Below are positions 1-20,000 of a stretch of 20,000 bases of DNA, piece after piece. The position numbers and the translations under genes are program-made. The DNA lies in the IMG/VR virus record IMGVR_UViG_3300006417_000262, positions 51,828-71,827 of that record, one strand, 5' to 3'. The DNA comes from an uncultured virus (IMG/VR IMGVR_UViG_3300006417_000262). Lineage: Duplodnaviria; Heunggongvirae; Uroviricota; Caudoviricetes. The notes under the pieces were generated by a model. The model was not told the origin of the DNA. It searched no databases and saw only the letters and a program-made list of their open reading frames with translations. Within the stretch, counting starts at the first letter, position 1; every line of letters starts with the position of its first letter.

Positions 1-3000
1 CTCTCACTAACGAGAGGAGACACCATCACTGCCGTGTCCTACTACTTGGCCGCGCAGAAGTTCTGGTGGACTCGGAACGACTCTTACCTGCAGCGGTTTG
101 GGTGGGACGGCACCACGCAGCGATGGGCTCCGTTCAAGGGGTCTCCCCCCGCGTCGCTCGGGAAGCTCTTGGGCGACCAGAGCTATGTTCTTGTCCCGCA
201 TCCGTCGCGGTTCTCGATCGGTGACTACCTGCCTGGTGATGCACTCACACCGGACTCCTACTCGATGGTTCGGGTAGGGACACGTCCTGACTCCAATGGG
301 AGTTCGGCAGTCGTCCTTGTAGTGGCAGACGCGGACGCCGCCTCAACGTACTCATTCCCGCCTGGCGTGGATGCGGTGGTTGGTGTGGCAAGCGGTGTGC
401 TACAGTGGAACCCCCTCACGATCGATAGCTCGGCGGGGCAGGGCGTGTGGTACGTGCCCGAGACGTTCTCGGAAGAATCAAATGGGGTGGTTGGGCCGCT
501 CCTTGGCGCGACGGACGACCCGCTCTTCATCGCACCTATTCCTGGCCCTACGGACTACCCGCTCATTCGCCTTGGCTCCAGGCGATACCTGTCGGCAGTC
601 ATGGCGGACTCGGATGCGGCATTGGGCGCGCTCACCGTGAATGAGGGCCAGGTGGGTTGGTCACTCGCAACGGGAAAGCTCAAGTTCAACGCGGCTGATG
701 TCCTGAAGGCTGACCCGGATGACGTGGGGTTCGAGCTTCTCTACCTTGGTTGCCAGGTCGTTTATGACGGTGTGTCCCTCACGCGCGCTCCCGTAGGGAC
801 TCGTGCCCCGGTTCAGGTTGTGGACTCCACGGGCACGCCAACCACGGTAGACGGTGGAAAGAACCTCTTCATCCCTAGCTCGACCCCGCTGCCATCACCC
901 GGCACGTCCGGTGTTCTCCTCGTCCCGGATGGTACAGGCATCACGCCGAACACGTCTGCGACGCCTGGCACACGCCCTAATGGATCGGGCCTCGTTCGGG
1001 AGGTGGCAGTCGATGGGGATCTGATTCTGTTCGGGAAAGCTGGAGCGATTGAGACGTTGGAGGTTGTCGAGTTCGAGTCGGAACTCCCGGTGTTCCTGTT
1101 CAAGCTCCGCAATGGGAAGGGCATGGTGGCCCGGGAGCTGTCGTCTACGGGGGCTGGTTCACGGGTGGAGATCGGTCGGAAAGACCGGGCGCTGCTTGAC
1201 GGAGAGCCGCTTTATTTCCTCCAGGCGGTGGTGCAGCCAGCCATTTATGCGACACAAGCTCGACTCGTGTCGCGCGTCCGCGAACCCTTTGTCCTCGACG
1301 GGGCCGAGGTGCTCGCATTCTCCATTGATGGCACGGACTATCTATGGGCGGCCACGGGCCTTGGTGCGGGGAGCTTTGATGCGGTGACCGTCGCTGCTAG
1401 CATCGATGCGGTTATCACGGGCACCGGAACCGCTTCGGCTAGCAACGGCCGCATCTGGATTTCTGCGGCCAACCTTAGCACTGGCACAGTTGAGATTGGC
1501 TTAGGCTCCATTGTGTCTGGGGCGTTTGCAGACCGCAACCTCTCTGGGTGCGCCGCGCTCGGGTTCCTGCCTGGCTGGCGGGTGAGCAATCCGGGATCGA
1601 CGGACAACTGGCTGCCCGATGCGGGGCTCGCGCTTGGCGTCTCGCGCAGCCCTCTGAACCTCAACCGAACACAGGACGATGCTGATTTCAAGGCTCGCGG
1701 GCGGTTCCGGGACACCGTTCTCTCGCGGAGCGTCACGCCCGTCCACATCTTCCCCCTCAACAACCCACCGCTCATAGACGTGGCCGGGTACGACGAGGGC
1801 ATCTTCTTCCAGACCATCGACGGCTTGTTCCGCCGGTCCTTGGAGCCGTTTGTGGATGTCCTCTATGAGTTTGAGGACGGTCGATTCTCGTGGTTGGAGG
1901 TGGGGTCGGTCATGAAGGGCGTGGCCGAAGCTACGGCGAGCCTCGCCCTGGACTCTACGGGCGTGGTCGGAGAGACCCTCCACCCGAATGTTGGGGCGGG
2001 CTACGGCCTGTATGTGGATCCTGGCTCTGGCGTGCTCTCTCCCCTCACCATCGGTGAGGACTACCTGTTGGACGAGGCTCCAGGGGTGGTCACGCTCATC
2101 GAACGAGTGGGGGATCAAGTAGCCTCTGGGTCTCTCGGGTCGTTCAGTGCAGGCTCTACGACGTTCACCGATGCGAATGCGACGTTCGTGACGGACGGTG
2201 TTGCCGCAGGCTATCGGCTAAAGCTCATTGGCGGCGACCCCTCGGTGCAAGGGTCGTACATCATCGCCTCCGTGACCAACGAGACGACGGTTGAGATTGT
2301 GACCGATGTGCTGTTTGCGGCGGCGGGCTCCGTGGTGTCGTGGGAGGTTTATGAGGGGCAGCCTTCATCGGGATACGATCCAGGCCTCCTTGCCGACGTG
2401 GTCTACAAGCAGTTCAATCACCTGCCGACTGAGACGTTCATCATCCGTGTCCTGTCACTCCTTGGGCCGACACCCGTGGATGCCGCAGCGCAGGCAGTGG
2501 GGAGGCTCAACGCGGTCGTGACGGATGCCTTGCTCGCGGGCCGCCCGATCTCGGTTCGTTTCGGGCAGGAGAGCGGCAACGACGAGGCATCCGTTGTCCC
2601 TTTGACTCGTACAAAGCTCGGGGTGATGGCCAATGGCACCTTGTCGGTGCCTGATGTGGCGGACCCCCATTTCACCACGGGCACACCTACGTTCTCTGTT
2701 CTTGTAGGGGCAGTGCCATACACCATCGGCTCCAACTTGGTCGGCGTGTCCGCGTTCACGGAGCCACTCCTCGGGGATCAGATCGAGTTTGGTGTCCCGG
2801 GGTCTGGTATCGAGGGGCAAATCAAGTTCGGAGAGGACACGTTAGCCGAACTGGAAGAGTCCTTCGTCTACTACGTGCAGACCTTCACGGATCCTGCAGA
2901 CCTTGCGGGCGGGGCAGCCGAGGTCGACCCAACAAGTGGGGATCTCAATCTCTCAGCAACGGATATGGCCAACCACGGTGGGGAGACCGCGTACTTCGTT

Positions 3001-6000
3001 GAGCAGATGATCACGGAAGATCGTCAGGACGTGGCCATCTCCCCCATTCAGGGAGCTTTGGCGTTCCGCCGCCCTCTCCGGGAGTTCCAGCTCGTTGAGG
3101 CGAGCTACTACCAGGCCGACGTGTCTGGAAACAAGGTGGTGGACAGTGATGGCAACGCGGTGCTCATCACGGAGTTCCTCCCGTTGTTCGTGAGGCTGGA
3201 GGCGGCTACCGAGAACACGACGCTGGAATACTCGTTCAACCCGACTGGACGCACGGTGCGTGGAGACATTCCCTCGCAGGTGTGGGTGGCAGACCGGCTC
3301 CAGAACTACGGCAATGTGACCACCGTGACGGTGGATGCAGAGGCGAGCGTGATCAGGTTCGCGACGCCGCTCACCTCGTCGTCATCGGTTCAAATCAACT
3401 ATGCGGTCAACGAGACATTTGGCGGGGAGCAGGGGTTCACCGTTTCGACGACGCCCGTGTGGCGTCCCCCGTTCTTCTTGCTTGAGGGCGCCAACACGTT
3501 CGAGCTGGAGTCTGACCGCACTGTCGATTTCCGGTCTGGCAACCTTCTACGTATTGGGCCGTCTCCCTTCTACGTGGTGGGGTCGGTGTACGACAACACC
3601 TCGGATATCACGACGGTGGTCATCTTCCCGACTCCCGATACGGAAGTCGGGTCGAGGGCTCCGGGCAACGACGCGCTCACCTTGATCTCGTCGAGGCCGG
3701 TGGCTGCAGAAGTGAACGGCAACCCGGCGAGCGGGGCTGCCGGATTCTTGCTCACCTTGGCGGCCACCTACGAGCCCGTGGATGCGGGCATGCTCTCCAT
3801 TGTGTTCCGTGGGGATGTGACTCAGTTTACGGTTGCGGGCCATCTCATTGAGATCGGCGGTGTCCCGTTCCTTAGCGCAGGCACGACGTTGTCGGCTGAT
3901 GGCCTCACGACGACGGTGAACGTGACGACCCCGTTCAGTCGTGGATTTGACTCGACTGTGGATGCAGTGAAGGTGTCCGCCCGTCCCATCTACCCCCCGG
4001 AGCCGCGCCAGTTCGTAGGGCTCGGCCCGGTTGTTTCGACCGAGCCAACCGAGCTTGTGCTGTTCGGGGAGATTGGCAGTGCAGGGACAGCGTTGCCCGG
4101 GCGCACCCTCGTCGCAGGGCGGGATTACACGCTTGATGAAGCAACGGGTGACATCACCCTCATTGCCCCCGTGCAGGCCCCGCTCGGACTTGACGAGAAG
4201 TTGTTCTTCTCCTACACGCGGCGCCAGGCGCTATCCCCCATCCTCGAGGACGGGATGATCGTGCTCCCGCGGTATCGGGCTGGGTTCGCACACGTCTCCA
4301 CTCCCACTGTCGAGAACGGATTTCTCGATGCCTATCTCACGGGCACGTACACCTTCTCGAGTCCTGATAGCTTCTACGTGCGCACGGTGTCGATGCCCGA
4401 ATGGATGGGGGAGGTTGCCCGAGTCGCAGCGGATCGTGTGGCGTCACGCACACCTCACGGCGGGCCCGTCGTCGTGTCCGGCCCTGCGTCAAACAACTGG
4501 CAGTTCGGCACCGTGCCCGTGGAGTCCCAAGAGCGAGAGCTTCAAGACCAGGACCGTGCAGCCCGGGTGTTCCTGAGCCTCTACGACTCGTTCATCCAAG
4601 CCTTTGAGCAGGTCAACGAGACGATCCTGGGCGATGTGGTGGGTGACCACGACGGCAAGTTCCGATTCTTCGTCGGCCGCAACAAGGTGTACGGAGGCCC
4701 CGGCTACGAGGACCAGATCACGGGAGTGCTACAATCCCGTTTCGTCTGGTCACAGGTATTTGAGGCGGCCAACCAGAGCTTCGGGGTGACGGAGGCCGAC
4801 CCTATCGTAGACCCCGAGACGGCCACGCAAGACCCCACTACGCTCGTGGTGTCCGGGGACGCGATGAACCCGTGGCTTCTGGACTACTACATTCGGGAGC
4901 AGCGAGCCCTCGTCCTCAACGACATGGACGACACCATCCTTGCGGGCAGGGGTAGGGCTCGGCTGTCGTTCCCCTTCTCGTTCCGAGTGGGCGGCGAGTT
5001 CAAGCAAATGTGGGCTCCGAGTGTGATCTCGCGGCTGTATCCAGAGTTCACGCTTGCGTTCACTACGACGTACCCCGGCCTCTTGGCAGGCACGTTGCCT
5101 GCCAACCCCGGCGTGTACTCCTTCTTGAAGCAGATCGAGCGCCCTCGCCTTCTCAAGGGCGAAGGCCCCGTGTTCGGGTCGACCTTCGGGATGGATATCG
5201 GTGACGTGTCGAACCCGGCCCTGGGCCTGATCACGAACATCACCGGCCAGGTGAAGCCACGGGCGCGACTGGCAAGGGCGCGCATCTGGGCCTACTCGGC
5301 CACTGGATTCCCCGACCTCGGCGGCCCGAGCAAGCCTTCTGTCATCGCCACTCCGCTTCTGCTTCGTGACTTCCCTGTAGACCCGGAGACGGGGCTGCCC
5401 GACATCACCAGGTTTGCGGAGCAGGGCGGGGATCTCCAAGACCTCTCGACGGGCGACTACGAGCTGTCCACGCCAGCATGGGAGGCATACAGCGACGCGG
5501 ACGACATCCGCCCGCAGGTGGCCTTCGGACGTCCGAGCGGGGAGACGTACTCCGTTGGGTTTGCCGGTGGCACGCTTCTAGATGCATTCGGCGGGGCGTT
5601 CACGTTCGCAAACCCGGTGTTCAAGGGCATCTTCGTGCATGCCCGGTACGCCGGGTGCATCCTCACGTTCACGGACGGCACGGGTGAAATCTCGGACGCG
5701 CAGGACATTGTGCGGATCGCCGAGGACGGGGTGACCACTCTTCCCTTCGAGCCAGCCTACGGGGACACCATCTACGTCATCCCGCCAGGCAGCGAGGATG
5801 CCAGCGGATTCGCCAACCCGCTCATGGTGGAGGACATGGCGAAGTTCGCAGCGCAGATGCCGTCTCTTGACGTAGGCGTGCGCGAGCGTCGTTCCTCCTT
5901 TGTCGACTGGAGCCTCCCGTCGTACAAGGACCCATCCCCGTTCCCGATCAAGGAGATGGTCGGCCAGCGGACGGCGGCCCCGCTTCAGCCTATCGAGGCG

Positions 6001-9000
6001 GACGTGGAGTTCGTGAGCACCCGTCGGGACCCCCTGGAGTTCCAGGCGCTGATGGGGTTGCCCACCAATGACCACGGGGACTACGGCATCCCCTACTTGA
6101 CCACCACGAATACAGAGATCGAGCGTTTGGGTGCGGTGGCTCCTGCGTTCACGACCATCGTGCAGACGGATGGCCCGTTTGTCTCGCACCTGTGGCTCGC
6201 GGTGTACCCCGACGAGATCGTGGGCAGCGACGGCTCTATCCTTGCCGCTGCCGCGGGGGTCACGCCTCCGGCCACACTCCTCACGGCCAGGGATCTGACC
6301 CCGGTGGCTACGGCGGGGGTCTACACGCCTCACTCGGGTGTTGGCGACGTGCGGCCGTATGACCTCCTCCTCATCGAGAAGGGCCAGGCTGACGTGGTGG
6401 ATGGCATTGAGGGTGTGCTTTCGGTCGGGGCGGCCACTGCGGACACCATTGAGCCGCCGCGCTTTGTGACCGCAACGGCCCCAGCGACCCGCATCCGCTA
6501 CCTGTTCACCAACGTGATGACCCACTTCTCCACCACGGGGCTTTCCGGGGTTGATATCCAAGAGAACGGAGGTGTGACGACCACGCTTGATATCTCCACA
6601 GTTGGCGGACTGTTCCTCAACGATGGCTCGGGTGCGGCCACGGGGGGCCTCAACGGCATCGTGAACAATGCCCTGTTTGCATACGGGGCCAACAACAACC
6701 GCATCACCATCGAGATCCTCGACCAGACTTCGGGCCTTGTGCTTGAGACCGTCATCATCGAAGGTGGGAACGTGACGGGTGGCTTGGGCACTGTGGCAAT
6801 GGGAGCCATGCCTACGTTCACGGACAAGGTGGTGACCATCACGGCCGTGGGGTTCGTGGACTTCGCTGCGTTGGGCGGGGTCGCCCCAGGTCCAGTGGGG
6901 CCGTTCGATTTCCTGGTGACCGTGGACACGCTCGTCACGATGGTGACCCCGAACACGGGATCCGCGACGGCCTACGTGGACACGGATCGGTTGACCTTCG
7001 TGGAGGAGATGGATCTCCGCACGGTGCTGCCGCGAGGCGCTGTGTCGGCTGGCGCTGTGTCCGCGCAAGGCGAACTGTCCGTGTTCGTCGTCACGGCGTC
7101 CGGTACGGACACATGCATCGTGAACCATCCAAACGAGGTGAACGGTGGTGCTCCGTTCACCTTCCTGGCAAGGGACTCGGGTTCCCCTGATTCCATCGGT
7201 TCGTTCGACCCGTCACCTGGCACGGAGCTGGGTTCTGTCAAAGTCATGGGCTTCGAGGGTCACGGCAACACGCCCCTGCCGAGCACGGGGTCGTTTGTGT
7301 TCTCGGCCATCCCGTCATCAGACCAGGGTGCCCTTGCCACGATCCTCTCGGGGACGGGTGCGGTGTACGACACAGGCGTGGGTGGCATCAACCCCAACTC
7401 CATCCTTGGGGTCACAGCGGCCTTGGGGTCGCTGGCCAACGTGGAGAGCGGGGACGTGGTTGTGGTGGACTCCTCGTCCGTTGGGGATGCGTCCACCAAG
7501 GCCGGGTCGTACCTCGTGCGGCACGCGATCCCTGACTCCACTGCGCTCGGCTACGACGAGGTGTTCGCTACTGCGTTTGGTGGTGCCTCGACGGGCTGGC
7601 TGCAAAGCAACTTCCCAACGGTGGTGTCCGGTGCGGTGGGGTCGCTAATCATCTCCTCCGTGCAGTCTGTCCCCGCGTCCCCCACGACCCATGACTGGGC
7701 CGCTACTGGTCGGGTCTATCTGTTCGTGTCAGCGGGTGACATCACGCAAACCGTGTCGCGCGAGTACACGGCGATCGTGGTGAATCCAGATGGGACGGCC
7801 ACGCTCACTCTGGACATCACGAACACGACGGGGCTCACCGCTACGGGAGTATTCCTCACGGATGCTGCTTTTGACGCGCTTGTGGCGTCGGGGCTGCTTG
7901 TTTCGGGAATGGTCTACCTCCCTATTGGTCAGTTCCGCTCCACGTACCCGGACAACAACGTGGTTGGATACAACCACGGCGTGACGGTGGGGGGGTTCGT
8001 CAACGTGACGTATGCCAATGGCGCTGGATCTGTCACGTTCGCCGCGGGTGTGGACTTGGTGCCCACGGCCCCTGCGGCGGATGACCTCGGGGTGGTTGTG
8101 TCGGACAACACCAACACCAACACGTCCGTGGGGTTCTTGGCCGACCGAGCGACGTCCGTGTATCTGGACGTGCCCCTCTACGTGGACCTTGGCGGCCTCG
8201 TAGACCCGACTTCGACCGTGTACGGGACTATCCACCCAACCGCGACCGCGGTGCGGTGTGTGGCCCCTGGGGACCTGTTCCAGACCCATGACGGGTTGTC
8301 CACGGCGACGACAGGATTCGAGGCACAGGCGGGCGTGTTTCTTGAGCCCTCGTTCCCACGACCAACCCAAGACCTTGGCAACGGCGAGGTCAAGGTGGTG
8401 GATGCGGGGGACACCGCTGCCGCCACGGACAGGATCGGGATGCGGGATGCGGCCACATTCCTCATTGCGTCTCCCGAGCAGGTGTCCTTCCAGGTGCGGC
8501 GTATCCGTCGCTTCCATGTCGCGCTTGATGCAGTGGGGGCAGACATGGCCCCACTGCGATTCGCCTACGAGATTCGCACGGGCACGGTGGCAAGCTATGC
8601 GGGCAGTCTGTTGACGGCTACGGGCACGGGAACGCAGCTTGGTGGGTTCAACAACGCCGACGTGAACGTGAACGCCGGCGACGTGGTGCGCATTCTTGAT
8701 GGGAGTGGGGCCGTGGTGGACCAGGCCGAAGTGGCCGTGGTCCTGAACGCCACGACGCTCATCATGCGATCGCCTGGATTTGCAGTGGCGCCTCCGGTGG
8801 GTGGCGAGACCTTCCAGGTGTTCTTGCGCCAGGCACCCGTCCCTCACGTGCAGTCGAACGAGCAACTACTGGAACTCATTACAGATCGGATCGTCCTCAC
8901 ACGGACGGCTGACCCTGTGGCAAACACGGGTGGACGAGCTTCCGTCGTCAACGAGTTCCGAGACAACGGTGTGGTTGACTTCTCGGCGCTTGATCCGGCC

Positions 9001-10056: not shown

Positions 10057-10059
10057 GCC

Positions 10060-10290
10060 ATGTCTGACCTTGATGACCTCCGAAAGCGACTTGCCGAAGC
10101 TGGGATCCCGGTGGACGGGTGGGTTCAAACAGATGGCGGGGAGCGACCGCTTCCTCCATCCATTGTTCGCCAGAAGGAGCTTTTGACGAAGGTTCGTGAC
10201 CTACTGCAAGGGCAGGTGGATCAGGATCGAGCCAAACTCGCCGAACTCTATGAGGCGAAGAGTCGCCTCACCCATGGCGGGGGGTCGTAG
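10060..10290 (+). CDS. Small hypothetical coiled-coil protein (76 aa)
   Basis: Exactly fills the gap between two large genes (3-nt gap upstream, 1-nt overlap downstream), with GGAG at 10050-10053 before the ATG. The C-terminal half is heptad-like (QKELLTKVRDLLQGQVDQDRAKLAELYEAKSRL). Confidence 0.75.
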   Translation: MSDLDDLRKRLAEAGIPVDGWVQTDGGERPLPPSIVRQKELLTKVRDLLQGQVDQDRAKLAELYEAKSRLTHGGGS

Positions 10291-12887: not shown

Positions 12888-12890
12888 CAC

Positions 12891-13721
12891 ATGGGTTTCG
12901 GGTATCTCGGCACGTTTCGACAAGGACAGTGGCAGGAGTACCGTTCGTTCGTCCTAAACGAGCGTCGCGACATTGCACGTCGGATGGCTGTGATTCAGGC
13001 CGAGCTTGTGCGGATTGGGCGGATTTCCGTGGGGTATCTGCAAACCACGGACGAGGTGTCGCAGGAAACTACGATAACCGAGCAGCGGACGGGCTTTGCT
13101 GTTAGCCAGGGATCCACGCTGGAGAAGCTGATCCAAGCGTATGTCGCGCAAGGTGGCAATCCGTTCAACATTTCGTTGTTTCTCACACCGGATAGCACGT
13201 TCGTGACGGATGACGACACGGAGTATCCGACGCAACCCTATGGGGGAGTGGTCTACCCCCAAACCGGAAGCCCCGCTGTTGGGACGCGATATGAGGGTGG
13301 CTACCTCGTCGTGAAGAAGTACCCACCATCACGACTTGGGGGCCGTAAGGACCCTCAAGATGGGATGGTGGCGGGGGCCGTGGCTGTCACACGGAAGTTC
13401 ATCAATCAAACCGCACAGCACCGTCTTCACAACCTAGAGGCCCGGATCATCAAGCAGTGTGACCTGCGAGAGCAGTTGCTGAATGAGTTGGAGGTCATGA
13501 CGATGGCCGTAGGGGGCGTTTCAGGCGCCATCCCCACAATAGACATGGATTTTTACGGGGACAGTCTAGGCGTAGCACAGATCGTGGCCGCCATAGACTC
13601 TATTTTCTACACCACGGAGGACGGCGTTCCAGATTTTGCCACGACCAATGACGAGATGCTTGCCAAGTACCCGTCACTGTATCCGGACATTCCAGGCGAA
13701 GAGGACAACACCGCGTTGTGA
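12891..13721 (+). CDS. Hypothetical protein (276 aa) with two predicted helical/coiled-coil segments, probably structural
   Basis: ATG lies 3 nt after the upstream stop, with GGAG just before it. Helical segments are ERRDIARRMAVIQAELVRIG and RLHNLEARIIKQCDLREQLLNELE, and the C-terminus is acidic. No family recognised. Confidence 0.75.
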   Translation: MGFGYLGTFRQGQWQEYRSFVLNERRDIARRMAVIQAELVRIGRISVGYLQTTDEVSQETTITEQRTGFAVSQGSTLEKLIQAYVAQGGNPFNISLFLTPDSTFVTDDDTEYPTQPYGGVVYPQTGSPAVGTRYEGGYLVVKKYPPSRLGGRKDPQDGMVAGAVAVTRKFINQTAQHRLHNLEARIIKQCDLREQLLNELEVMTMAVGGVSGAIPTIDMDFYGDSLGVAQIVAAIDSIFYTTEDGVPDFATTNDEMLAKYPSLYPDIPGEEDNTAL

Positions 13722-13764
13722 CGGTGCGCGGCCTATAGCCTGCGGGTGGTAGAGGACAGGACGA
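13722..13764 (+). promoter_or_regulatory. Possible internal promoter plus RBS ahead of the baseplate wedge genes
   Basis: This is the longest intergenic gap in the operon (43 nt). It contains CCTATAG (13732-13738) and AGAGGA (13751-13756) upstream of GTG 13765. Only one instance is present, so support is weak. Confidence 0.25.
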
Positions 13765-14883
13765 GTGTCTACCGACTTCCAAATTGCCTTCCCATGCCCC
13801 CATTTGATCATGGAGGAGGTCGTGGCTATTGGGGGTGACCGGAAGTCGCTGGTGCCAAAAGCGCCCGTAACCGCATCGGGCGTTGTTCGGATTCTCGTCA
13901 ACGACGAGGCGTACATCCCGCCCGGAGGTTTGTATGCACAGGCGCAGCTTTCTGGCTCGGTTGCTGGGCCGTTCCGCATTGATTCGTGCAACCGCACGTT
14001 CACAGTGCAGGGTAGCACGGAGACGGCGACGTTTGAGCTTCCCGTTGGCAATCGAGTCGACCCCATCGCTGTGCTGCGACTTCTTTTGAATGGTCTCACA
14101 GATGTAGCACCCGAGATCGTGCGTGGACACCTGGTTCTCACGGATGCCGGATCCGTAGGGGTTGGCTCATCGCTTCTTGTGAGTGGGTCCGGGGCCGCAG
14201 CCATCGGGTTTGGCGTGCAACGTGGGGCACGGGGGCGTCAGGTGTATCCAAAGTGGGGGCTTGCATCATCGTCATCTACGGTGGTGGGTCGCTACCCCAA
14301 GTTTTCGGCGCCCGTCCGTCAAAATCCAGTATTCAAGCTGACTTACGTGACTGAAGGTCGGCTTTGTCCACGGTGCTCTGGCACGTTCATCGAGAACGAT
14401 TACAGGTTCAACCTGCAAGGGGACGCCGTACTTATCCAGGACGAAAACCTTCTGTACCAGGCGGCCTTGAAGATCCTACTCACGCAGATTCGGTCGAATC
14501 CGTACCACCCTGGCTACGGGTCGGCGATCATGAGCCGCATTGGCACGAAGGCCATCGGGGCAGCCGTGTCGCTCATTACAGGGGATGTTCAAACGGCTCT
14601 GTCAAACATGCAGGCACAGCAGGCGGCGCAGTCGAAGTTCCAGGTGGTGTCCGCAAAAGAGCGTCTGTACTCCGTTACGTCGGTGAGGGTGTCCCCCCAC
14701 CCGCAGGATCCCACCATGTTTGAAGTGGACGTGGTGGTGCGCAACGCCTCTAACGATCCGGTATCCATCTCCATCGTGTACTCCGTCCCAGGCGCGGTAG
14801 CACTCGCTGGCACCAATGGGCTGTCACTAGGGCTTGAGACGACCGGGTTGTCCGCGGCTCAGTCCAGTCTGCTACTCCGGTAA
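13765..14883 (+). CDS. Baseplate wedge subunit, gp25/GPW-like, with N-terminal extra domains and a putative Zn site
   Basis: The C-terminal ~170 aa match the gp25 pattern: GDAVLIQDENLLYQAALKILLTQIRSNPYHPGYGSAI...ERLYSVTSVRV...FEVDVVV. The gene is directly upstream of the baseplate J-like gene and carries CPH and CPRC motifs. Confidence 0.8.
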   Translation: MSTDFQIAFPCPHLIMEEVVAIGGDRKSLVPKAPVTASGVVRILVNDEAYIPPGGLYAQAQLSGSVAGPFRIDSCNRTFTVQGSTETATFELPVGNRVDPIAVLRLLLNGLTDVAPEIVRGHLVLTDAGSVGVGSSLLVSGSGAAAIGFGVQRGARGRQVYPKWGLASSSSTVVGRYPKFSAPVRQNPVFKLTYVTEGRLCPRCSGTFIENDYRFNLQGDAVLIQDENLLYQAALKILLTQIRSNPYHPGYGSAIMSRIGTKAIGAAVSLITGDVQTALSNMQAQQAAQSKFQVVSAKERLYSVTSVRVSPHPQDPTMFEVDVVVRNASNDPVSISIVYSVPGAVALAGTNGLSLGLETTGLSAAQSSLLLR

Positions 14884-14895
14884 GGGTGAAGAATC

Positions 14896-17800
14896 ATGGC
14901 TACATCCATCACCCCACTCGTGCTTGGCCCCGATGGTGTCCTTCGAGACACCATGTATTTCGCAACTACGGTGGGATCCAAGTTCTTTACAGGGACATGT
15001 GACGCTTCAATCGTCGACATGGAGGTGTCGATCTCCGGCGGGGCGTACACCAGGGATCCTGACTACATCGTCTTCAATGGCACCTCATGGGTGCTGCCAA
15101 ATCCAGAAGTGTTCCCCGACGGCTTGGCCCTAGATGCGGGCGCGAACACGATCCTCGTGCGTTCGATCACGGGGAATGGCGGGGTGTCCTCTCCGGCCAC
15201 AATCGTAGTGCGCTTGGTGCAGGAGGGGGACGTGAGCCTGGTTGCGTCCCCGCCTACGGGTGTCTCCGTAGAGCAGCGGGATGGGGCCGTGGAATTGTCT
15301 GTGGATGGTCCTTCGGACGTCTCTTATTTCCAAGGGGTCAATTTCTACGCGAGCATGTATGAGGGTGGCGGGGCTACTGGCTACACACGGGTGAATCTGG
15401 AGCTGGTGGGTTCTGGCACGACGACGGAGGAAACCAGTGAGGTTGGCACCATCGAAGTGGATGCCGATGTGCTTGTGAGCGGCGACGGCACTCCGGCGGC
15501 GGATCCCATGTACGTCGAGTACGTGGGATCACAGGTGGATGCGGACAGTGCAGTGCTGCAGGCCGATTTCACCGAGCGGCTAGAGATCCCGGAAACCGCC
15601 ACGAAGGTTCGCACCACTATTCTGCTTGAAGCCGTGTCAACGACCACGCGCTATTCGTTCACCCACTCGCGAACAGCGACACGCACGTCGAGTCCGCCTA
15701 CTGTGTACGTCGGGTCATTTGCCTCGATGGACGTGTCGGAGTCTCTGTATTACGTGACGACTGCGGTTTATTTCGACCCGGTGGCACTCGTGGAAGTGGA
15801 GTCGTCCTACTCGGCTGAAGTCGTGGCACGGCCTCTGACAGTTACCACGACCGTTGGATCGTTCCCAATCGTCAGCCGACAGCAAATCATTCGAGACACC
15901 ATCACTGGGATTAGCCGGTCGAATCGGCAGATTCGGGTTGACCCTGGTTCCGTGCTTCGGGACACGTTCATCGATCCGTTCTCGTCAGAAGCTGAACGTC
16001 TTCGGTTTATCGTGGATTTCCTTCACCGCGCGCAGAGCTTCGCGGGCCTTCTGCAGATTGACGATCCTCAAAACACGGGGTTGTCCGTCAATGTGGCCTC
16101 GTCAACGTACAAGCTGGCGCTCAAGAAGGCGTTTGGGCTCTCGCGCAACGCGGACGTGCAGTCCGTCATTGACCGGGCATTCGAGTCTCTGGCCTCGAAG
16201 TACGGAGTGTTTCGGAGGGCCGGTCGATTTGCGCGTGGATTGGTGACGTTCTACACTACACAGACGCCTACGAGCACTCGACCAATACCTCTTGGTACGA
16301 TCGTGGCGGGTGGCTCCGTGCAATTCAAGGTGTTGTCCGCATCAAGCATTCGCTTCTCCGACCGTGGGTCATTCTACGACCCTACGACTGGGCGCTACCA
16401 GGTCAACGTCTCTGTTCAGGCCACCTCAATCGGTTCTGCGGGCAACGTGGCCGCGGGTCAGATTCGGAAAGTGGTGTCGGGGGTGACGGGGCTCTCTGTT
16501 ACAAATCCAGGAGATATGTTCGGAGGAGACGAGCAGGAGACGAACCTCGACCTCGCCACCCGGGCGCAGAATGCGCTGGCTTCGGTCGACTCGGGGACGG
16601 CACGCGGGTATCTGCAGACTGCTGCGGACGTGCCCGGAGTCGTGCAGGCGCAGGTGGTCATGGCAGGCGACCCCATCATGTTCCGCGACCTGGACGCCTC
16701 TGGCGTTCATCGTGGGGGCAAGGTGGACGTGTGGCTGCAAGGGGACAGCCTTGCCACGGTCACGGACACGTTTGCGTTTGCGCGAGACGTAGCCAATAGC
16801 ATCCATTTTGTGCTCATCGGAGACCCGTCCACGTTGATTTTCCGCGCCGTGGACCCGAGTCTTACGGCAAGCCTCCCCATTGTGGAGATGTTGGATGACG
16901 AAGAACAGAGTGTAGGGCTTCGCAACGCATCCACGGGTGAGTTCTTCGACCTCACGGACGTGCGGATCACGAGCTTTGACACCATCCAACTCTCCACGGA
17001 CGTGGTGCAGCCATCCGTCACGCTGTCCGATGTGGTGTTGGGGGACTATCGTCGCCTCACGGGCAATCGGTTTGACTTCACCCGCCAACCTGTTCACGCC
17101 GTGTCCAAGGTGGTGGGTGCCATCAGTGGGGAGCTGCCAAGCAATGCATACCAGCTCGTTCATGAGAGCGACCCGCTTGTGCTCGGCCGCTCGACGCTAG
17201 CCGGCGACTACCTTGAGATCGTCCCGGTTGACGATGGGGAGGGGGGGTACATCCCGTTCGGTGCATCTGTTAGCGTGGTAGGCGAGGAGCACACCCTCAT
17301 AGGGGAGTACCTGGAGTATTTGGACAGCATCGGTGCAGATCCGCTCTCAATCGTTGTGACGAGTCAAGACGGGCTGACCACATATCGGGGACCAAACGAT
17401 CCAAGCGGGGTGTCCGATTACACTATTGTGGATGGGGACGAGACAACCCCTTACGCCATAAAGCGTGTGCCAACGGGGACAATTGCATCAGGAGCCGTGG
17501 TGCTCGTGTCCTATGATCACGACGAGAACTTCACCGTCTCCTACACGACGAACATCATTGTTTCCGTCGCACAAGAAGCCATCAACGTGAAGCGTCATGC
17601 TACGGCAGACGTGGTCGTCAAGGAAGGCGTGCCCGTCCCTGTAGACATCGCAGCTACGGTCATCTTGGCTCAGGGATCCTCGAGATCTGCAGTGGACTCC
17701 GCTCTTCGCACGAACCTCGCCAACTACTTCGCGAGGTTGCGGCTTGGGGACCCGATTCGGCAAGGCGATGTGGTAGCGATCATCGAGGGCACGTCTGGCG

Positions 17801-18363
17801 TTAGTTACGTGGAGGTGCCGATCACGACGATGATCCGTCAAGAGGGATCCATGGTCGTGCGCGAGGGTCTTGCCACGGGTCAAGCAGGGGATGTGACGTA
17901 CGTGGCCGCTTGGTCCGGAGCGACGGTGTCCACATGGCTCATCGACCAGGAGCTGTCCTCCGCTACAACGAATGGAGGCGGCCCCACGAACGAGTACCGA
18001 GGAGTGTTCCAGGATGACGTTGCCTTGACGCTCCTAACCTCCTCACCGAGCACTGCGCTTGGCGCATCGGTAGGGAATGCGTTCATCGTCGGCGATGATG
18101 GGTTGGCTATTCCAGGACTTAGCGACACGGCGGCCCTGAATGCGGAGGGGTGGTTCACGGAGGACGAGCTAATTGAGCAGCGCCGCCTGCTCACGGCCAA
18201 CAGGGTGCTCGTCACCACGTCCGTCGATGACAGCCCCACAACCCACTCCTATGCCGCCACCTACATTGTCGGCGTGTCTACGGGGGCGGGCAACATCACC
18301 ACCAACCTGTCCGAGTATCCCATCATGGGCAACGTCGAGTTCACCTTCGACGAGGACCGGTGA
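14896..18363 (+). CDS. Baseplate J/gp47 (T4 gp6-like) wedge protein with N-terminal Ig-like and FN3-like domains and internal insertions
   Basis: Baseplate J motifs appear in order: PGSVLRD; LASKYGVFRRAGRFARGLVTF; IPLGTIV; VQATSIGSAGNVAAGQI; VTNPGDMFGGDEQETNLDLATR; GTARGY; VPGVVQAQV; GGKVDVW; and C-terminal LANYFARLRLGDPIRQGDVVAIIEGTSGVSYV. Confidence 0.9.
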   Translation: MATSITPLVLGPDGVLRDTMYFATTVGSKFFTGTCDASIVDMEVSISGGAYTRDPDYIVFNGTSWVLPNPEVFPDGLALDAGANTILVRSITGNGGVSSPATIVVRLVQEGDVSLVASPPTGVSVEQRDGAVELSVDGPSDVSYFQGVNFYASMYEGGGATGYTRVNLELVGSGTTTEETSEVGTIEVDADVLVSGDGTPAADPMYVEYVGSQVDADSAVLQADFTERLEIPETATKVRTTILLEAVSTTTRYSFTHSRTATRTSSPPTVYVGSFASMDVSESLYYVTTAVYFDPVALVEVESSYSAEVVARPLTVTTTVGSFPIVSRQQIIRDTITGISRSNRQIRVDPGSVLRDTFIDPFSSEAERLRFIVDFLHRAQSFAGLLQIDDPQNTGLSVNVASSTYKLALKKAFGLSRNADVQSVIDRAFESLASKYGVFRRAGRFARGLVTFYTTQTPTSTRPIPLGTIVAGGSVQFKVLSASSIRFSDRGSFYDPTTGRYQVNVSVQATSIGSAGNVAAGQIRKVVSGVTGLSVTNPGDMFGGDEQETNLDLATRAQNALASVDSGTARGYLQTAADVPGVVQAQVVMAGDPIMFRDLDASGVHRGGKVDVWLQGDSLATVTDTFAFARDVANSIHFVLIGDPSTLIFRAVDPSLTASLPIVEMLDDEEQSVGLRNASTGEFFDLTDVRITSFDTIQLSTDVVQPSVTLSDVVLGDYRRLTGNRFDFTRQPVHAVSKVVGAISGELPSNAYQLVHESDPLVLGRSTLAGDYLEIVPVDDGEGGYIPFGASVSVVGEEHTLIGEYLEYLDSIGADPLSIVVTSQDGLTTYRGPNDPSGVSDYTIVDGDETTPYAIKRVPTGTIASGAVVLVSYDHDENFTVSYTTNIIVSVAQEAINVKRHATADVVVKEGVPVPVDIAATVILAQGSSRSAVDSALRTNLANYFARLRLGDPIRQGDVVAIIEGTSGVSYVEVPITTMIRQEGSMVVREGLATGQAGDVTYVAAWSGATVSTWLIDQELSSATTNGGGPTNEYRGVFQDDVALTLLTSSPSTALGASVGNAFIVGDDGLAIPGLSDTAALNAEGWFTEDELIEQRRLLTANRVLVTTSVDDSPTTHSYAATYIVGVSTGAGNITTNLSEYPIMGNVEFTFDEDR

Positions 18364-18366
18364 GCC

Positions 18367-19404
18367 ATGGCCGCCGACGATCCTACCAACCCGCTTGACG
18401 CCATCACGCTGTCTCAAAATCCGTCTCCGTTTCCAGAGACGGGGCAGGATTTCCTCGACAAGGTGAGGCTGCAGACGAGCGCCATCCTGGCGCAGTTCAT
18501 CAAGGTGCTCCCTTCCAACTACGTCTCTCGCACCACGGGGCCGTTCTACACCCTCCAGTTCCAGGCAGCGGCCGAGCAGCTCGCTGTGTTCCAAGTCACG
18601 GCACAAGAGGTGTTCAAGGACGCGGACTACGACTACACCCGTCCAGAGTTCCTTTGGGAGGTGCTTGGGTCATTCGTGTTCCCCGAAGCCACCACCGTCC
18701 CTACCGTTGACGGCGACCAGGCCTACCGAACCTTCCTGAAAAAGATGGTGTTGCTGTTGCTCCGAGGGGCCACACCAGGCGTGATGCAGGAAGGGGCAGA
18801 GCTACTAACGGAAGCCGATGTCTTGCTGCTCGAGAGGTTCCTGGAAGCGCGGGAGCCAGGCTCCGCGTTCACGATCGACGACCAGTTCTTCGTGGACCTT
18901 CTAGTAGAGGAGGGGGGCGGGACATCCTTCCCAGCGCAGCCATTCGTCCTCCAGGAGAATGTCCGGCTCATCTTGAAGGCCCTCAAGCCAGCCCATGTCC
19001 TTTACAGCTACTCGCACTTGTTCCGAGAAACCTTCGGGACGCTCTTTGTGGACACGTACTCGTGGGAGATGTCCGCCTACTACTACGACGACTTCCGCAA
19101 GTTCTGCTACGGTGCCAAGGAGATTACAGGGCTGCGGTTCGTTCGCCGGCCGGGCCGATGCCCTAGCCCAGCGTACCGGGCGCGGGCAAGCAAAACGAGA
19201 CGGGCGCAGACCGGCCCGTACGCACGAGACCTCCTGCAACGCCGCCTCGGGCGCTGCGACGGTGCCCACCACCAGCGTGCGAGGCTGGCAGCGCGGCAGC
19301 GAAGCCTGCTGCTCAGTGCGAGAACTCTTGTGACGCGCGTCTTCGATAGGGGTTCTGGCTGCGACCGTGCGCCGGAGGTCGAGCGGCCTGAAGTTGAGGA
19401 GTGA
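18367..19404 (+). CDS. Baseplate wedge protein, P2 gpI/T4 gp7-like. Native only to ~19131 (aa ~255); the last ~90 aa are read-through into unrelated DNA
   Basis: Follows baseplate J and carries LPSNY, DQAYRTFL, RGAT and LKALKPAHV, motifs typical of gpI/DUF2313-like proteins. After ...GAKEITG the translation becomes Arg-rich and non-protein-like, and GC rises sharply. Confidence 0.75.
   Translation: MAADDPTNPLDAITLSQNPSPFPETGQDFLDKVRLQTSAILAQFIKVLPSNYVSRTTGPFYTLQFQAAAEQLAVFQVTAQEVFKDADYDYTRPEFLWEVLGSFVFPEATTVPTVDGDQAYRTFLKKMVLLLLRGATPGVMQEGAELLTEADVLLLERFLEAREPGSAFTIDDQFFVDLLVEEGGGTSFPAQPFVLQENVRLILKALKPAHVLYSYSHLFRETFGTLFVDTYSWEMSAYYYDDFRKFCYGAKEITGLRFVRRPGRCPSPAYRARASKTRRAQTGPYARDLLQRRLGRCDGAHHQRARLAARQRSLLLSARTLVTRVFDRGSGCDRAPEVERPEVEE
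19125..19140. other. Compositional junction between phage-like DNA and high-GC bacterial DNA
   Basis: Hand counts give ~57% GC for 19021-19080, ~72% for 19141-19200 and ~77% for 19681-19740. Protein-like translation is lost at the same point. Confidence 0.8.
19160..19189 (-). promoter_or_regulatory. Putative alphaproteobacterial sigma70-type promoter, divergent from rlpA and pointing at the junction
   Basis: The minus strand reads TTGCCC-17 nt-CTAGGG (in GCTAGGGC), resembling the TTG...GCTANAWC-type consensus, followed by a GC-rich stretch. Confidence 0.3.
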
Positions 19405-19642
19405 CCCCGCCGCCAGAGCGGGGCCGGTGCCGGCCGGCCTCGAGCCTCGATCCGATCTGCAACTCGATGTCCCCGCCGTCGTAGCCGCCGCCGGCGCCCG
19501 CGTTCACCCGATGCTCACCCTGTCTTGCCATGGTGCGGCCGTGGGTTCGCCGGGTTCACCGGCAAGGTATCCGTGGTCGGCGTCCGGCTCTCTCGACGGC
19601 TTTTCGAGGGCTGGCCCTCCAAGGTGGGATGGAGTTCGCGTG

Positions 19643-20000
19643 GTGGTGTTTGCGTTGGGCCGCGGGGCGGCCGTCCGGCGGGCTGGGGAGCGATCTCGCG
19701 TGCGTGCCGGCGTGGTGGCCGTGCTGGGCCTCGCCGTGGTGGCGGCGGCGTGCTCGCGCGGTGGCTCGGACCGGGTAGCCTCCAGCGGCATCGATCCGGC
19801 GACGGGAACCCGCGCCAGTCCGCGCGTGGTCGCCAATGGTCCGATCCCGAAGGGCGGCGGCGTCTACAAGGTGGGTGTGCCCTATCAGGTGGCCGGGCGC
19901 TGGTATCATCCGCGCATCGATCCGGCCTACGACCGCACCGGCGTCGCCTCCTGGTACGGCGACGATTTCCACGGCCGCAAGACCGCCAACGGCGAGATCT
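19643..20000 (+). CDS. rlpA: Septal ring lytic transglycosylase RlpA family lipoprotein (5' part, runs off the window)
   Basis: My translation: (M)VFALGRGAAVRRAGERSRVRAGVVAVLGLAVVAAAC-SRGG...ASPRVVANGPIPKGGGVYKVGVPYQVAGRWYHPRIDPAYDRTGVASWYGDDFHGRKTANGEI. It has a signal peptide with a lipobox-like Cys (19751-19753) and the RlpA hallmark ASWYG-x-x-FHGRKTANGE. GGAG lies at 19631-19634; the start could be GTG 19640, 19643 or 19646. It is absent from the ORF track because there is no stop in the window. Confidence 0.93.
   Translation, partial: MVFALGRGAAVRRAGERSRVRAGVVAVLGLAVVAAACSRGGSDRVASSGIDPATGTRASPRVVANGPIPKGGGVYKVGVPYQVAGRWYHPRIDPAYDRTGVASWYGDDFHGRKTANGEI

Follow-up and report, generated by a model that had tools for sequence, protein, structure and literature searches.

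The inner-baseplate core of contractile machines recurs as gp25-gp6-gp7(-gp53) in T4, gpW-gpJ-gpI in P2, gp46-gp47-gp48 in Mu, and TssE-TssF-TssG in T6SS. To our knowledge, metagenomes are almost the only source of information on huge phages (300-700 kb), and no description of their particles exists. Here, we analyzed a 20,000-nt part (hereafter the window) of contig C1 (71,827 bp) and found that it carries gp25-like, J-like, and gpI-like genes in the same order as the T4, P2, Mu, and T6SS cores, with the three genes tightly coupled. The window differs from these cores in that the gp25-like protein (372 aa) has a 220-residue N-terminal extension and a Cys/His/Cys/Cys set, J is 1,155 aa long, the gpI-like protein lacks a direct Pfam or PHROG match, and a 276-aa gene of no known family lies before the trio. 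Upstream of these are genes for 865-aa and 76-aa proteins and for a very large protein, referred to here as the giant.

Among cultured jumbo phages, J is homologous (24-30% identity) in the corresponding regions of Bacillus phage G (gp187-gp189) and Tunturiibacter phage Tunturi_5 (gp240-gp246), while no homologue of the giant, 865-aa, or 76-aa proteins was detected in either of them. In Tunturi_5, J is preceded by 1,969-aa and 1,106-aa proteins; these are annotated as RCC1-like, and the giant profile matches only at E 5.3. A tblastn search of 50,697 phage records, in which 3,000 residues of the giant served as query, found homologues of the giant and the 865-aa protein in LR745208.1 only and in no cultured relative. 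That unannotated record encodes a giant homologue of 3,644 aa (39-41% identity) and, after it, an 871-aa counterpart of the 865-aa protein. The block of 276-aa, gp25-like, J, and gpI-like genes is also present there, as it is in IMG/VR huge phages; in LR745208.1, the two blocks lie on opposite strands at a distance of approximately 20 kb, and the gpI-like gene is part of a fused gene whose product is 1,763 aa long. The phiKZ report describes a multi-layered jumbo-phage baseplate, and the layered architecture described there is the one that we propose here (PMC13250141). We found no sequence relation to phiKZ; the profiles of the giant, 865-aa, and 276-aa proteins have no PDB sequence match (designed helical bundles aside).

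A tightly coupled operon that ends at a chimeric join

We found that window positions 1-19131 form one tightly coupled plus-strand operon of seven ORFs, with intergenic gaps of 3, -1, 3, 43, 12, and 3 nt in order. The plus strand shows a coding pattern in GC by codon position (GC3 0.66-0.79), and by the same measure the long minus-strand ORFs resemble shadow frames. The first-pass annotation had described a 19-kb coupled operon; all seven of its ORFs were recovered at the same positions, and its end coordinate, 19131, is the exact point at which the window leaves true phage sequence. From 19132 to 20000, the window is foreign DNA (GC 0.69), a chimeric join to alphaproteobacterial DNA that arose by misassembly and truncates the gpI-like gene. 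An ORF at 19367-19999 in this segment is the beginning of a gene for an RlpA-family lipoprotein closest to those of Hyphomicrobiales, and RlpA-like relatives 59-74% identical occur in Hyphomicrobiales MAGs. Contigs from three sequencing runs cease matching at 19131, a fourth run matches only 19132-19981, and none of the four bridges the join; the IMG/VR contig L010 is identical over window positions 8428-19131 and then diverges. Since the join lies at 19131, only the first 255 codons of the 345-aa ORF at 18367-19404 are genuine. The last 869 bases of the record are unsuitable for host assignment.

In the contig, the tail-tip region runs from the gene for a tape-measure-like protein of 1,092 aa (in which Ala, Ser, Leu, Gly, Glu, and Lys are abundant) through two small paralogous genes, one for a hub-like protein of 1,387 aa that carries an M23 peptidase, and one for a 795-aa VgrG-like spike, and then through the 192-aa gene, the 3,527-aa giant, and the 76-aa, 865-aa, 276-aa, gp25-like, J, and gpI-like genes. 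The VgrG-like spike gene lies just upstream of the window at C1:48330-50717. It matches DUF2345 at 2.4e-5 (24.6 bits, under the 30.7-bit cut-off), and a 4-sequence spike profile matches the VgrG chain 6sjl_A (E 0.028) on the C-terminal Gly/Ala-rich region. It had been noted from the window alone that no spike was visible; this is correct for the window, but a VgrG-like spike gene is located immediately outside it. The 192-aa protein between spike and giant is hydrophobic and Gly/Ala/Val-rich. The upstream synteny of hub, spike, 192-aa gene, and giant is kept in three relatives (G001, G002, and G003). Elsewhere, the contig carries genes for a 1,781-aa sheath, GIY-YIG and HNH homing endonucleases, and RNase H.

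The wedge genes

The J gene (14896-18363, plus strand) sits between the gp25-like and gpI/gp7-like genes. Its product, a Baseplate_J/T4 gp6/TssF-like wedge protein, matches PF04865 over residues 430-591 (4.1e-23; 82.4 bits, with the cut-off at 21.1 bits). It also matches PHROG 6 (1.5e-31), described as "baseplate wedge subunit," and PHROG 1608 at residues 885-969 (1.3e-4). It is 45% identical over its full length to the LR745208.1 homologue, and long extensions flank the core domain on either side. By these profile matches, we consider the J assignment solid. The gp25/TssE-like gene (13765-14883, plus strand) encodes a putative sheath initiator that matches PHROG 2669 (2.9e-5) and PHROG 43 (2.1e-3), both at residues 223-339, which places the gp25-like domain after the N-terminal extension. 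The window's own protein has no Pfam match at E≤0.01, while PF10934 Sheath_initiator matches 3 of 10 relatives (6e-6 to 1e-3), all below the 32.9-bit cut-off. Residues C11, H13, C201, and C204 are invariant, the N-terminal module is also found in the sheath, and the family comprises 251 IMG/VR relatives. The gp25 assignment is thus weaker than that of J but consistent with the profile evidence. Both proteins had been flagged as oversized, and their lengths bear this out; an oversized J is nevertheless not unique because the cultured jumbo phage Tunturi_5 has a J of 1,239 aa.

The third gene (18367-19131, plus strand; first 255 codons) is assigned as gpI/gp7-like by its position and by transitive homology via phage G gp189. 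The intact gene in L010 encodes 429 aa, and over its full length the product can be aligned with a 423-aa relative (50% identity). The gpI-like profile matches the N-terminus of phage G gp189 (E 1.3e-22) and Tunturi_5 gp240 (1.4e-6). The phage G report calls gp189 P2 gpI-like and lists gp188 and gp189 as detected in virions (PMC12484599). Neither the window's own protein nor the intact L010 version matched Pfam or PHROG, Pfam matched none of four post-J homologues scanned (L010, L013, L016, and the 1,763-aa form of LR745208.1), and an 11-sequence profile found nothing in the PDB. PHROG 4017 "baseplate protein" weakly matches (E 0.0093) one of nine post-J homologues (L010, seven IMG/VR relatives, and the 1,763-aa form). 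The wedge trio proposed in the first-pass annotation is therefore supported by PF04865 for J, by PHROGs for the gp25-like protein, and by homology to phage G gp189 for the gpI-like protein, and the same evidence supports its broader view of an uncharacterized large myophage or contractile machine with a heavily elaborated baseplate.

The last four genes of the operon (276-aa, gp25-like, J, and gpI-like) make up a conserved inner-wedge block. By analogy with the T4, P2, and T6SS baseplates, J would build the wedge core together with the gpI-like protein, the gp25-like protein would seed sheath polymerization, and the 276-aa protein may be a lineage-specific fourth wedge subunit.

Four genes outside recognized families

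The four genes upstream of the trio had been described as belonging to no recognized family, and indeed none of them matches Pfam, PHROGs, or NCBIfam at E≤0.01. A match to described tail protein families had been named as one observation that would count against the proposed reading; because these four genes match no such family, that reading stands.

The 76-aa gene (10060-10290, plus strand) encodes a charged, probably helical protein. It is translationally coupled, with a 3-nt gap to the giant gene and a 1-nt overlap with the 865-aa gene. Some relatives only have kept it: G004 has a 42% identical homologue after a 3,631-aa giant, while G001 has just a 141-nt gap. The 865-aa gene (10290-12887, plus strand) has at least 96 homologous database proteins, none with a Pfam domain. 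It adjoins the giant gene in LR745208.1 and G004, even where the pair is parted from the wedge genes. A 59-sequence profile of this protein had no PDB match, and its predicted fold failed (pLDDT 33.7).

The 276-aa gene (12891-13721, plus strand) has at least 603 homologous database proteins. It lies directly upstream of the gp25-like gene in 10 of 13 IMG/VR loci and likewise in LR745208.1, and it weakly matches (E 0.034) its positional equivalent in Tunturi_5, gp243. In the PDB, a 58-sequence profile matched designed helical bundles only. These data suggest that the 276-aa protein probably belongs to the wedge core block as its fourth member.

The giant protein

The giant gene occupies window positions 1-10056 on the plus strand, is open at the 5' end, and contributes the last 3,351 of 3,527 codons. 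Its true start is at C1:51300, 528 nt upstream of the window, and overlaps the stop codon of the 192-aa gene by one base. With 3,527 aa, the protein ranks among the largest phage proteins; it is common to hundreds of huge phages and is not known to have been studied. We found at least 248 homologous database proteins and 146 IMG/VR relatives. Identity is 38-75% among 23 full-length members, and the protein is conserved from end to end, each 50-residue window having an identity of 0.33-0.65 across these members. Conservation is among the highest in the C-terminal 500 residues (0.46-0.61 per 50-residue window). The conservation over the whole length is easier to reconcile with a structural chassis than with a receptor binder that evolves fast. 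Long (approximately 3,500 aa) and short (approximately 1,950 aa) forms differ mainly in the distal two thirds, while the extreme C-terminus is common to both. Gly, Val, Ala, and Thr are abundant in the protein; BLAST found no internal repeats, and the family profile had no sequence match in the PDB. Scans of five family members, the protein from the window (3,351 or 3,567 aa) plus four relatives that span 1,949-3,631 aa, revealed no enzyme or toxin domain.

Structure prediction covered 701 of the 3,527 residues. Residues 1100-1800 (window 2770-4872) gave a mostly beta fold with a pLDDT of 78.2, predicted to be a string of small beta domains like those of phage tailspike, tail-tip, and baseplate proteins. 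This fold has 46 BFVD matches at E≤1e-3, including tail fibre, VrlC-like, Mtd N-terminal, neck, and tail-collar proteins, while Foldseek returned no PDB match at E≤1e-3 and TM-scores to whole chains are approximately 0.1. A domain of approximately 80 residues resembles connector domains of K1 capsule lyase (Z 10.3) and Mystique tail tube (8.7), with matches of the same type in JBD30 baseplate (8.2), Phi92 gp150 (7.8), and Chi tail tip (7.4), although Z scores of 7-10 for so small a domain stand near the tool's stated background of 7-8. The short form in G002 (1,970 aa) matches the tail-fibre PHROGs phrog_1591 (4.2e-6) and phrog_1980 (4.6e-5) at residues 1773-1869. Both these matches and the tail-fibre-like matches in BFVD suit a fibre equally well.

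Conserved gene order and phage origin

A search of IMG/VR for synteny, recommended in the first-pass annotation, revealed a conserved gene order. Among 13 non-self loci found with J, the gp25-like gene lies directly before J in all 13, a post-J gene is present in 11, and the giant is upstream on the same strand in 8. Fifteen contigs occur in both the giant and the gp25-like relative lists, and 14 of them have a giant segment 11.0-14.4 kb upstream of gp25 on the same strand. Since 20-57 kb separate the giant-865 pair from the wedge genes in LR745208.1 and G004, linkage of the giant to the wedge is not obligatory.

The relatives are IMG/VR virus contigs of 300-620 kb (up to 618 kb) and the 485-kb GenBank "uncultured phage" LR745208.1. 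One relative of 437,331 bp has terminal repeats and is rated 100% complete by CheckV. We searched G000, G001, G003, and LR745208.1 (the contig and three relatives) with Terminase_6N, Terminase_6C, Gp23, and the Tunturi_5 portal and found no head gene; these searches are insensitive, as Gp23 failed to match any of the control genomes and no genome is known to match the portal query. Given that the four queries found no head genes, phage identity rests on genome size, terminal repeats, and database classification. Between the phage and extracellular injection system (eCIS) origins that had been left open, the terminal-repeat genome, the GenBank phage, the sheath, and the homing endonucleases point to a phage.

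Under the injection-system alternative, which we consider highly improbable, the locus would belong to a bacterium, as a contractile injection system of phage descent or as a tailocin. The missing terminase, major capsid, and portal matches and the bacterial DNA at the window's end would suit it, but the former come from insensitive queries (Gp23 and portal) and the latter is the misassembly. An eCIS or tailocin would be a compact cellular locus that lacks head and packaging genes, while the relatives are virus contigs of 300-620 kb, including one that has terminal repeats and is rated complete, and the contig itself encodes a 1,781-aa sheath, RNase H, and homing endonucleases of the GIY-YIG and HNH types.

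Proposed role of the giant protein and alternatives

On balance, our data favor, if not strongly, the view that window positions 1-19131 are the distal half of a tail-tip operon from an uncultivated huge contractile-tailed phage, with the giant as a building block of the outer baseplate. A structural outer-baseplate component is the best reading of this protein, its main rival being a fibre. We infer its presence in the virion, its location in the baseplate, and its partners. With its constant neighbor, the 865-aa protein, it would form a structural block of an enlarged outer baseplate, as a long chain of small beta domains that is anchored to hub or wedge and holds up a peripheral layer. Large fibre- or depolymerase-like proteins from separate genes may attach to this layer. 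More tentatively, and with less than even confidence, we propose jointly that the giant and the 865-aa protein form a baseplate layer without a counterpart in solved phages, a multi-megadalton outer frame that is built from a few copies of the 380-kDa giant chain and is common to hundreds of huge phages, and that the 276-aa protein is an unrecognized fourth subunit of the gp25-gp6-gp7 wedge core. A large clade of huge phages keeps the universal gp25-J-gpI wedge plus four conserved familyless proteins, and each of these four families can now be aligned deeply enough for structure prediction. Insight into the function of the 3.5-kaa protein would reveal how a contractile tail is scaled for a half-megabase genome and would annotate hundreds of "hypothetical proteins."

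We regard it as rather unlikely that the giant is instead a very long tail fibre or adhesin for host recognition, with the 76-aa product as its assembly chaperone. The top BFVD matches (tail fibre, Mtd N-terminal domain, VrlC-like, and tail-collar), the likeness of the approximately 80-residue domains to tailspike N-terminal connector domains, the tail-fibre PHROG matches near the C-terminus of the G002 short form, the divergence of long and short forms in the distal two thirds, and the small gene that follows, as with fibre chaperone genes, all argue for a fibre. Receptor-binding tips, however, usually diverge fastest, while here the C-terminal 500 residues rank with the most conserved parts and the extreme C-terminus is kept even in short forms; the BLAST search for repeats was negative, and the 76-aa gene is absent in G001. 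Furthermore, IMG/VR relatives encode more proteins of 1,600-2,600 aa 3' of the gpI-like gene, and since one of these has a weak Phage_depo_C match (E 0.0044), they are the better candidates for receptor binders and fibres.

We also asked whether the giant might travel on or behind the spike and enter the host upon ejection as a pilot or cargo protein, similar to VgrG-linked T6SS effectors or the giant ejected virion proteins of other phages. Its gene follows the VgrG-like spike gene and the hydrophobic 192-aa gene, with the one-base stop overlap, and its product matches no structural family. This role is nonetheless improbable: the folded part appears, by prediction, to consist of small beta domains of a type found on the tail exterior, the five members scanned lack enzyme or toxin domains, and a 380-kDa beta-rich protein would need to unfold to traverse the tail tube. 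A role as the tape measure of a very long tail is close to refuted. Phage G does have a tape measure of similar size (2,893 aa, with a lysin domain) just before its baseplate genes. A tape measure would be largely alpha-helical and encoded before hub and spike. The giant, in contrast, is Gly/Val/Ala/Thr-rich with a folded segment of mostly beta strands, its gene comes after the spike gene and not ahead of the hub, and the 1,092-aa protein already occupies the expected upstream tape-measure position.

Wedge genes and layout of the operon

The gene module in the window is a form of the known myophage baseplate and not a separate kind of machine. The window is the final 20 kb of one 71,827-bp virus record (contig C1), and seven ORFs follow one another in an unbroken + strand series, with intergenic gaps of 3, -1, 3, 43, 12 and 3 nt in order. 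They comprise a giant gene (1-10056, 5' end open), genes for proteins of 76 aa (10060-10290), 865 aa (10290-12887) and 276 aa (12891-13721), a gp25-like gene (13765-14883, 372 aa), a Baseplate_J gene (14896-18363, 1,155 aa) and a gpI-like gene (18367 onward). The giant start codon lies in the contig at C1:51300, overlapping by one base the stop codon of the preceding gene, which encodes a 192-aa protein; homologues align from this methionine, and the full product is 3,527 aa. GC content by codon position follows GC3 > GC1 > GC2 in all + strand genes, while long minus-strand ORFs have the mirrored pattern typical of shadow frames. A tRNA search of the window found none.

The first-pass annotation had proposed a wedge trio of gp25-, J- and gpI-like genes, and this proposal stands on the Baseplate_J match, the gp25 PHROG matches and a profile link between the gene directly 3' of J (the post-J gene) and genes of two cultured jumbo phages. 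The J assignment is firm by sequence comparison: the protein scores 82.4 bits against Pfam Baseplate_J (cut-off 21.1) over residues 430-591 and matches PHROG 6 with an E value of 1.5e-31. The 372-aa protein is a probable gp25, matching two gp25-type PHROGs over residues 223-339 (E 2.9e-5 and 2.1e-3), and Pfam Sheath_initiator was found in the same region of 3 of its 10 relatives, all below the cut-off. Since nearly all of its 251 IMG/VR relatives align over almost their full length, the enlarged size of the gp25-like protein is ancestral to the clade. The product of the post-J gene gave no direct family match, a PDB search of its family gave none either, and its assignment as gpI-like rests on position and transitive homology. 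An 11-member profile of this family matched phage G gp189 at its N-terminus (E 1.3e-22) as well as Tunturi_5 gp240 (E 1.4e-6), each of which is encoded directly 3' of J. The phage G study describes gp188 as P2 gpJ-like and gp189 as P2 gpI-like with a C-terminal appendage, both present in virions (PMC12484599).

Across 65 family members, four residues of the gp25-like protein (Cys11, His13, Cys201 and Cys204) never vary. They could form a zinc site linking the N-terminal extension with the beginning of the gp25-like domain; T4 gp25 is not known to have a comparable Cys/His site. A module within the N-terminal part of the protein (residues about 59-108) recurs in a 1,781-aa sheath protein of the contig at residues 174-226 (profile E 7.4e-6). 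Complex prediction of the gp25-like and 276-aa proteins scored 0.00 in both runs, a result uninformative on binding either way.

Chimeric end of the window

We found that window 19132-20000 is a chimeric assembly end of alphaproteobacterial-like DNA joined inside the gpI-like gene. An IMG/VR contig carrying the intact post-J gene (L010) matches window 8428-19131 at 100% identity and diverges beyond it; the 429-aa product of its post-J gene aligns with a 423-aa relative from end to end (50% identity). The window's own post-J ORF becomes Arg-rich past codon 255, and GC content climbs to 0.69 in the last kilobase. The final ORF (window 19367-19999) is the 5' part of an RlpA-family lipoprotein gene, shows a lipobox-like signal, and is closest to Hyphomicrobiales MAGs and to Bradyrhizobium, Hyphomicrobium and Xanthobacteraceae genomes (59-74% identity). 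Words sampled from window 18300-20000 were present in any single public sequencing run at a fraction of 0.48 at most. Contigs from three runs, each of a different study, agree with the window as far as 19131 and from there carry letters fitting the L010 version; a contig of a fourth run covers 19132-19981 only, and what precedes that stretch in it is unlike the window. The join 19131/19132 was bridged in none of the four. The phage sequence itself is present at 99% identity or more in metagenomes from sludge, wastewater and runoff. Position 19131, at which the module had initially been taken to end, is the exact breakpoint of the phage sequence, which cuts the gpI-like gene. Because the join is an artefact, the RlpA-family gene is uninformative on the host.

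Conservation of the unassigned genes

The genes upstream of the trio had been described as belonging to no recognised family. This description holds for all four as regards family matches, yet they are real conserved families. The giant has at least 248 database homologues at E<=1e-3, the best 120 of which are 2,557-3,948 aa long and 42-83% identical; among the matches listed, none carries a Pfam domain or any name but 'hypothetical protein', and they occur on contigs of up to 647,917 bp. IMG/VR holds 146 relatives. The window's protein shares 38-75% identity with 23 full-length members; conservation among them is even from end to end, with residues 2400-2950 the most variable. Short forms of 1,949-1,984 aa in a more distant clade share blocks 192-455, 850-1000, 1116-1732 and 3466-3501. 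The 865-aa family has at least 96 homologues, 0 of them with a Pfam domain, and the 276-aa family has at least 603.

Gene order was compared across the 13 non-self J loci. The gp25-like gene precedes J in all 13 and the post-J gene is present in 11, while the 276-aa gene was found in 8 by tblastn and in 2 more as aligned ORFs at the same place. The giant lies upstream of J on the same strand in 8 of 13. Fifteen contigs are present in both the giant and gp25 lists; as we read these lists, the giant segment is on the strand of gp25 and 11.0-14.4 kb upstream of it in 14 of them. In LR745208.1, a 485-kb GenBank entry, and in one IMG/VR relative (G004), the giant, 76-aa and 865-aa genes lie together at 20-57 kb from the gp25-J block. 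The 276-aa gene and the post-J homologue remain with that block in LR745208.1; neither was found by tblastn at the J locus of G004. We read this arrangement as two modules, one comprising the giant and 865-aa genes, and the other the wedge block, with the 276-aa gene at its head where that gene occurs.

Some relatives carry homing endonuclease genes among the genes of the operon. An HNH endonuclease gene separates the giant from the 865-aa gene, and an endonuclease VII-like gene separates the 865-aa gene from the 276-aa gene (L018:4853-5686 and L023:7246-8094, segments of relatives). These genes are mobile insertions within a structural operon.

Spike-like and hub-like genes upstream of the window

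The first-pass annotation saw no spike gene nearby, which is true within the window; just upstream in the contig, however, lies a weakly VgrG-like gene. The series there begins with a tape-measure candidate of 1,092 aa rich in Ala, Ser, Leu, Gly, Glu and Lys, followed by two paralogous genes (227 and 356 aa), a protein of 1,387 aa that contains an M23 peptidase domain (L003:9167-13327, in contig segment L003) and a 795-aa protein with a Gly/Ala-rich C-terminus. The 795-aa protein matches DUF2345 (24.6 bits, cut-off 30.7) and a solved VgrG (E 0.028), both weakly. Between this spike gene and the giant lies the gene for the 192-aa protein (C1:50722-51300; L003:15722-16297), which is hydrophobic, rich in Gly, Ala and Val, and conserved in the relatives G001, G003 and G004. 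It gave no PAAR match and could act as a membrane-active tip protein. The order from the 1,092-aa gene to the giant is retained in G001, G002 and G003. Which tail protein carries the cell-wall-degrading domain varies among relatives: in this contig the 1,387-aa hub-like protein has an M23 domain, and in the 437-kb relative a 657-aa homologue of the 356-aa gene has an SLT transglycosylase (L032:1571-3541).

Structure and possible role of the giant

Searches of the giant against PDB sequences, with the single sequence or a 23-sequence profile, gave no match even at E 10. Residues 1100-1800 were folded from a 74-sequence alignment (mean pLDDT 78.2), and the model predicts small beta domains over about 500 residues and then long helices. 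Foldseek returned nothing at E<=1e-3 against the PDB and 46 matches at that threshold against predicted viral structures, including tail fibre, VrlC-like, Mtd N-terminal, tail-assembly and neck proteins. The TM is about 0.1 in each of the 46, a value to be expected when flexible strings of domains are compared. A barrel of roughly 80 residues (1424-1504) resembled connector domains in five structures, with Z 10.3 for K1 capsule lyase (rmsd 1.9 over 74 aligned residues), 8.7 for the Mystique tail tube, 8.2 for the JBD30 baseplate, 7.8 for Phi92 gp150 and 7.4 for the Chi tail tip; these Z values are barely above the tool's stated background. We take these matches as probable 'phage tail accessory domains' with no family assignment. 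Two adjacent beta-barrel domains are paralogous (profile i-E 3.4e-5; window 3742-4250, residues about 1338-1510); BLAST found no internal repeats in the giant. An ESM Atlas search with residues 150-1800 returned unnamed viral clusters only (0.84-0.85, below the tool's evidence level).

For the 865-aa protein, a fold from an 8-sequence alignment (pLDDT 33.7) was discarded, the ESM Atlas model was also poor (pLDDT 0.30) with meaningless neighbours, and PDB searches by sequence and profile gave no credible match. The 276-aa protein matched only designed helical bundles in the PDB.

We rejected the giant as a tape measure, as it is beta-rich and its gene follows the spike gene instead of preceding the hub gene. 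A scan of five members (the window's own and four relatives) found no enzyme or toxin domains. Relatives encode other proteins of 1,600-2,600 aa 3' of the gpI-like gene, one with a weak match to a depolymerase C-terminal domain, and these, together with conservation that stays even to the very C-terminus of the giant, favour a structural role for it, as the frame of an enlarged outer baseplate, over receptor binding. In a less probable reading the giant is a tail fibre, a host-recognition appendage; one short form has a tail-fibre PHROG match and the predicted fold has fibre-like BFVD matches, and the evenly conserved C-terminus speaks against this role. For the putative baseplate frame, the nearest solved functional analogue is the multilayer baseplate of phiKZ (PMC13250141), to which our searches found no sequence link. 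Al-Shayeb et al. 2020 go no further than stating that huge phages encode proteins of up to 7,694 aa, some tentatively called structural (PMC7162821). Our literature search found no paper describing the giant family.

Phage identity and relatives

The module had been ascribed to either a large myophage or a contractile injection machine. Phage identity rests on GenBank and IMG/VR relatives, a complete genome with terminal repeats, and the contig's sheath and endonuclease genes. The best GenBank match of J is LR745208.1, an unannotated 'uncultured phage' (45% identity, full length), followed by Tunturi_5 (309 kb) and then phage G (498 kb). IMG/VR holds 13 further J loci at 36-49% identity, one of them in a 437,331-bp genome that has terminal repeats and is rated complete by CheckV. 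These huge-phage relatives favour the myophage; head genes remained without a match. Quick searches with Terminase_6N, Terminase_6C, Gp23 and the Tunturi_5 portal found nothing in the contig (G000), G001, G003 or LR745208.1, and they were insensitive, the Gp23 query being silent in every control genome and the portal query having no known positive. A scan of Tunturi_5 at 115-163.5 kb for terminase or capsid sequences that could serve as queries found none. No paper on LR745208 was found, and the 'moraphage' clade, predicted to infect Bacteroidota, is a different one (PMC12619734).

The sheath protein of the contig (C1:4669-10014; L001:4669-10014) matches a tail-sheath PHROG over its last 360 residues (9e-26), and its 1,781 aa make it about two to three times as long as other phage sheath proteins. 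The contig also encodes two GIY-YIG homing endonucleases, a protein with an HNH endonuclease domain and RNase H. Also on the contig, in segment L002 (C1:18001-38000), are genes for a eukaryote-like Ser/Thr kinase (Pkinase match, 7e-43), an RNA-binding protein of the RRM type (1.3e-25), a peptidase resembling HslV and a GHKL-type ATPase.
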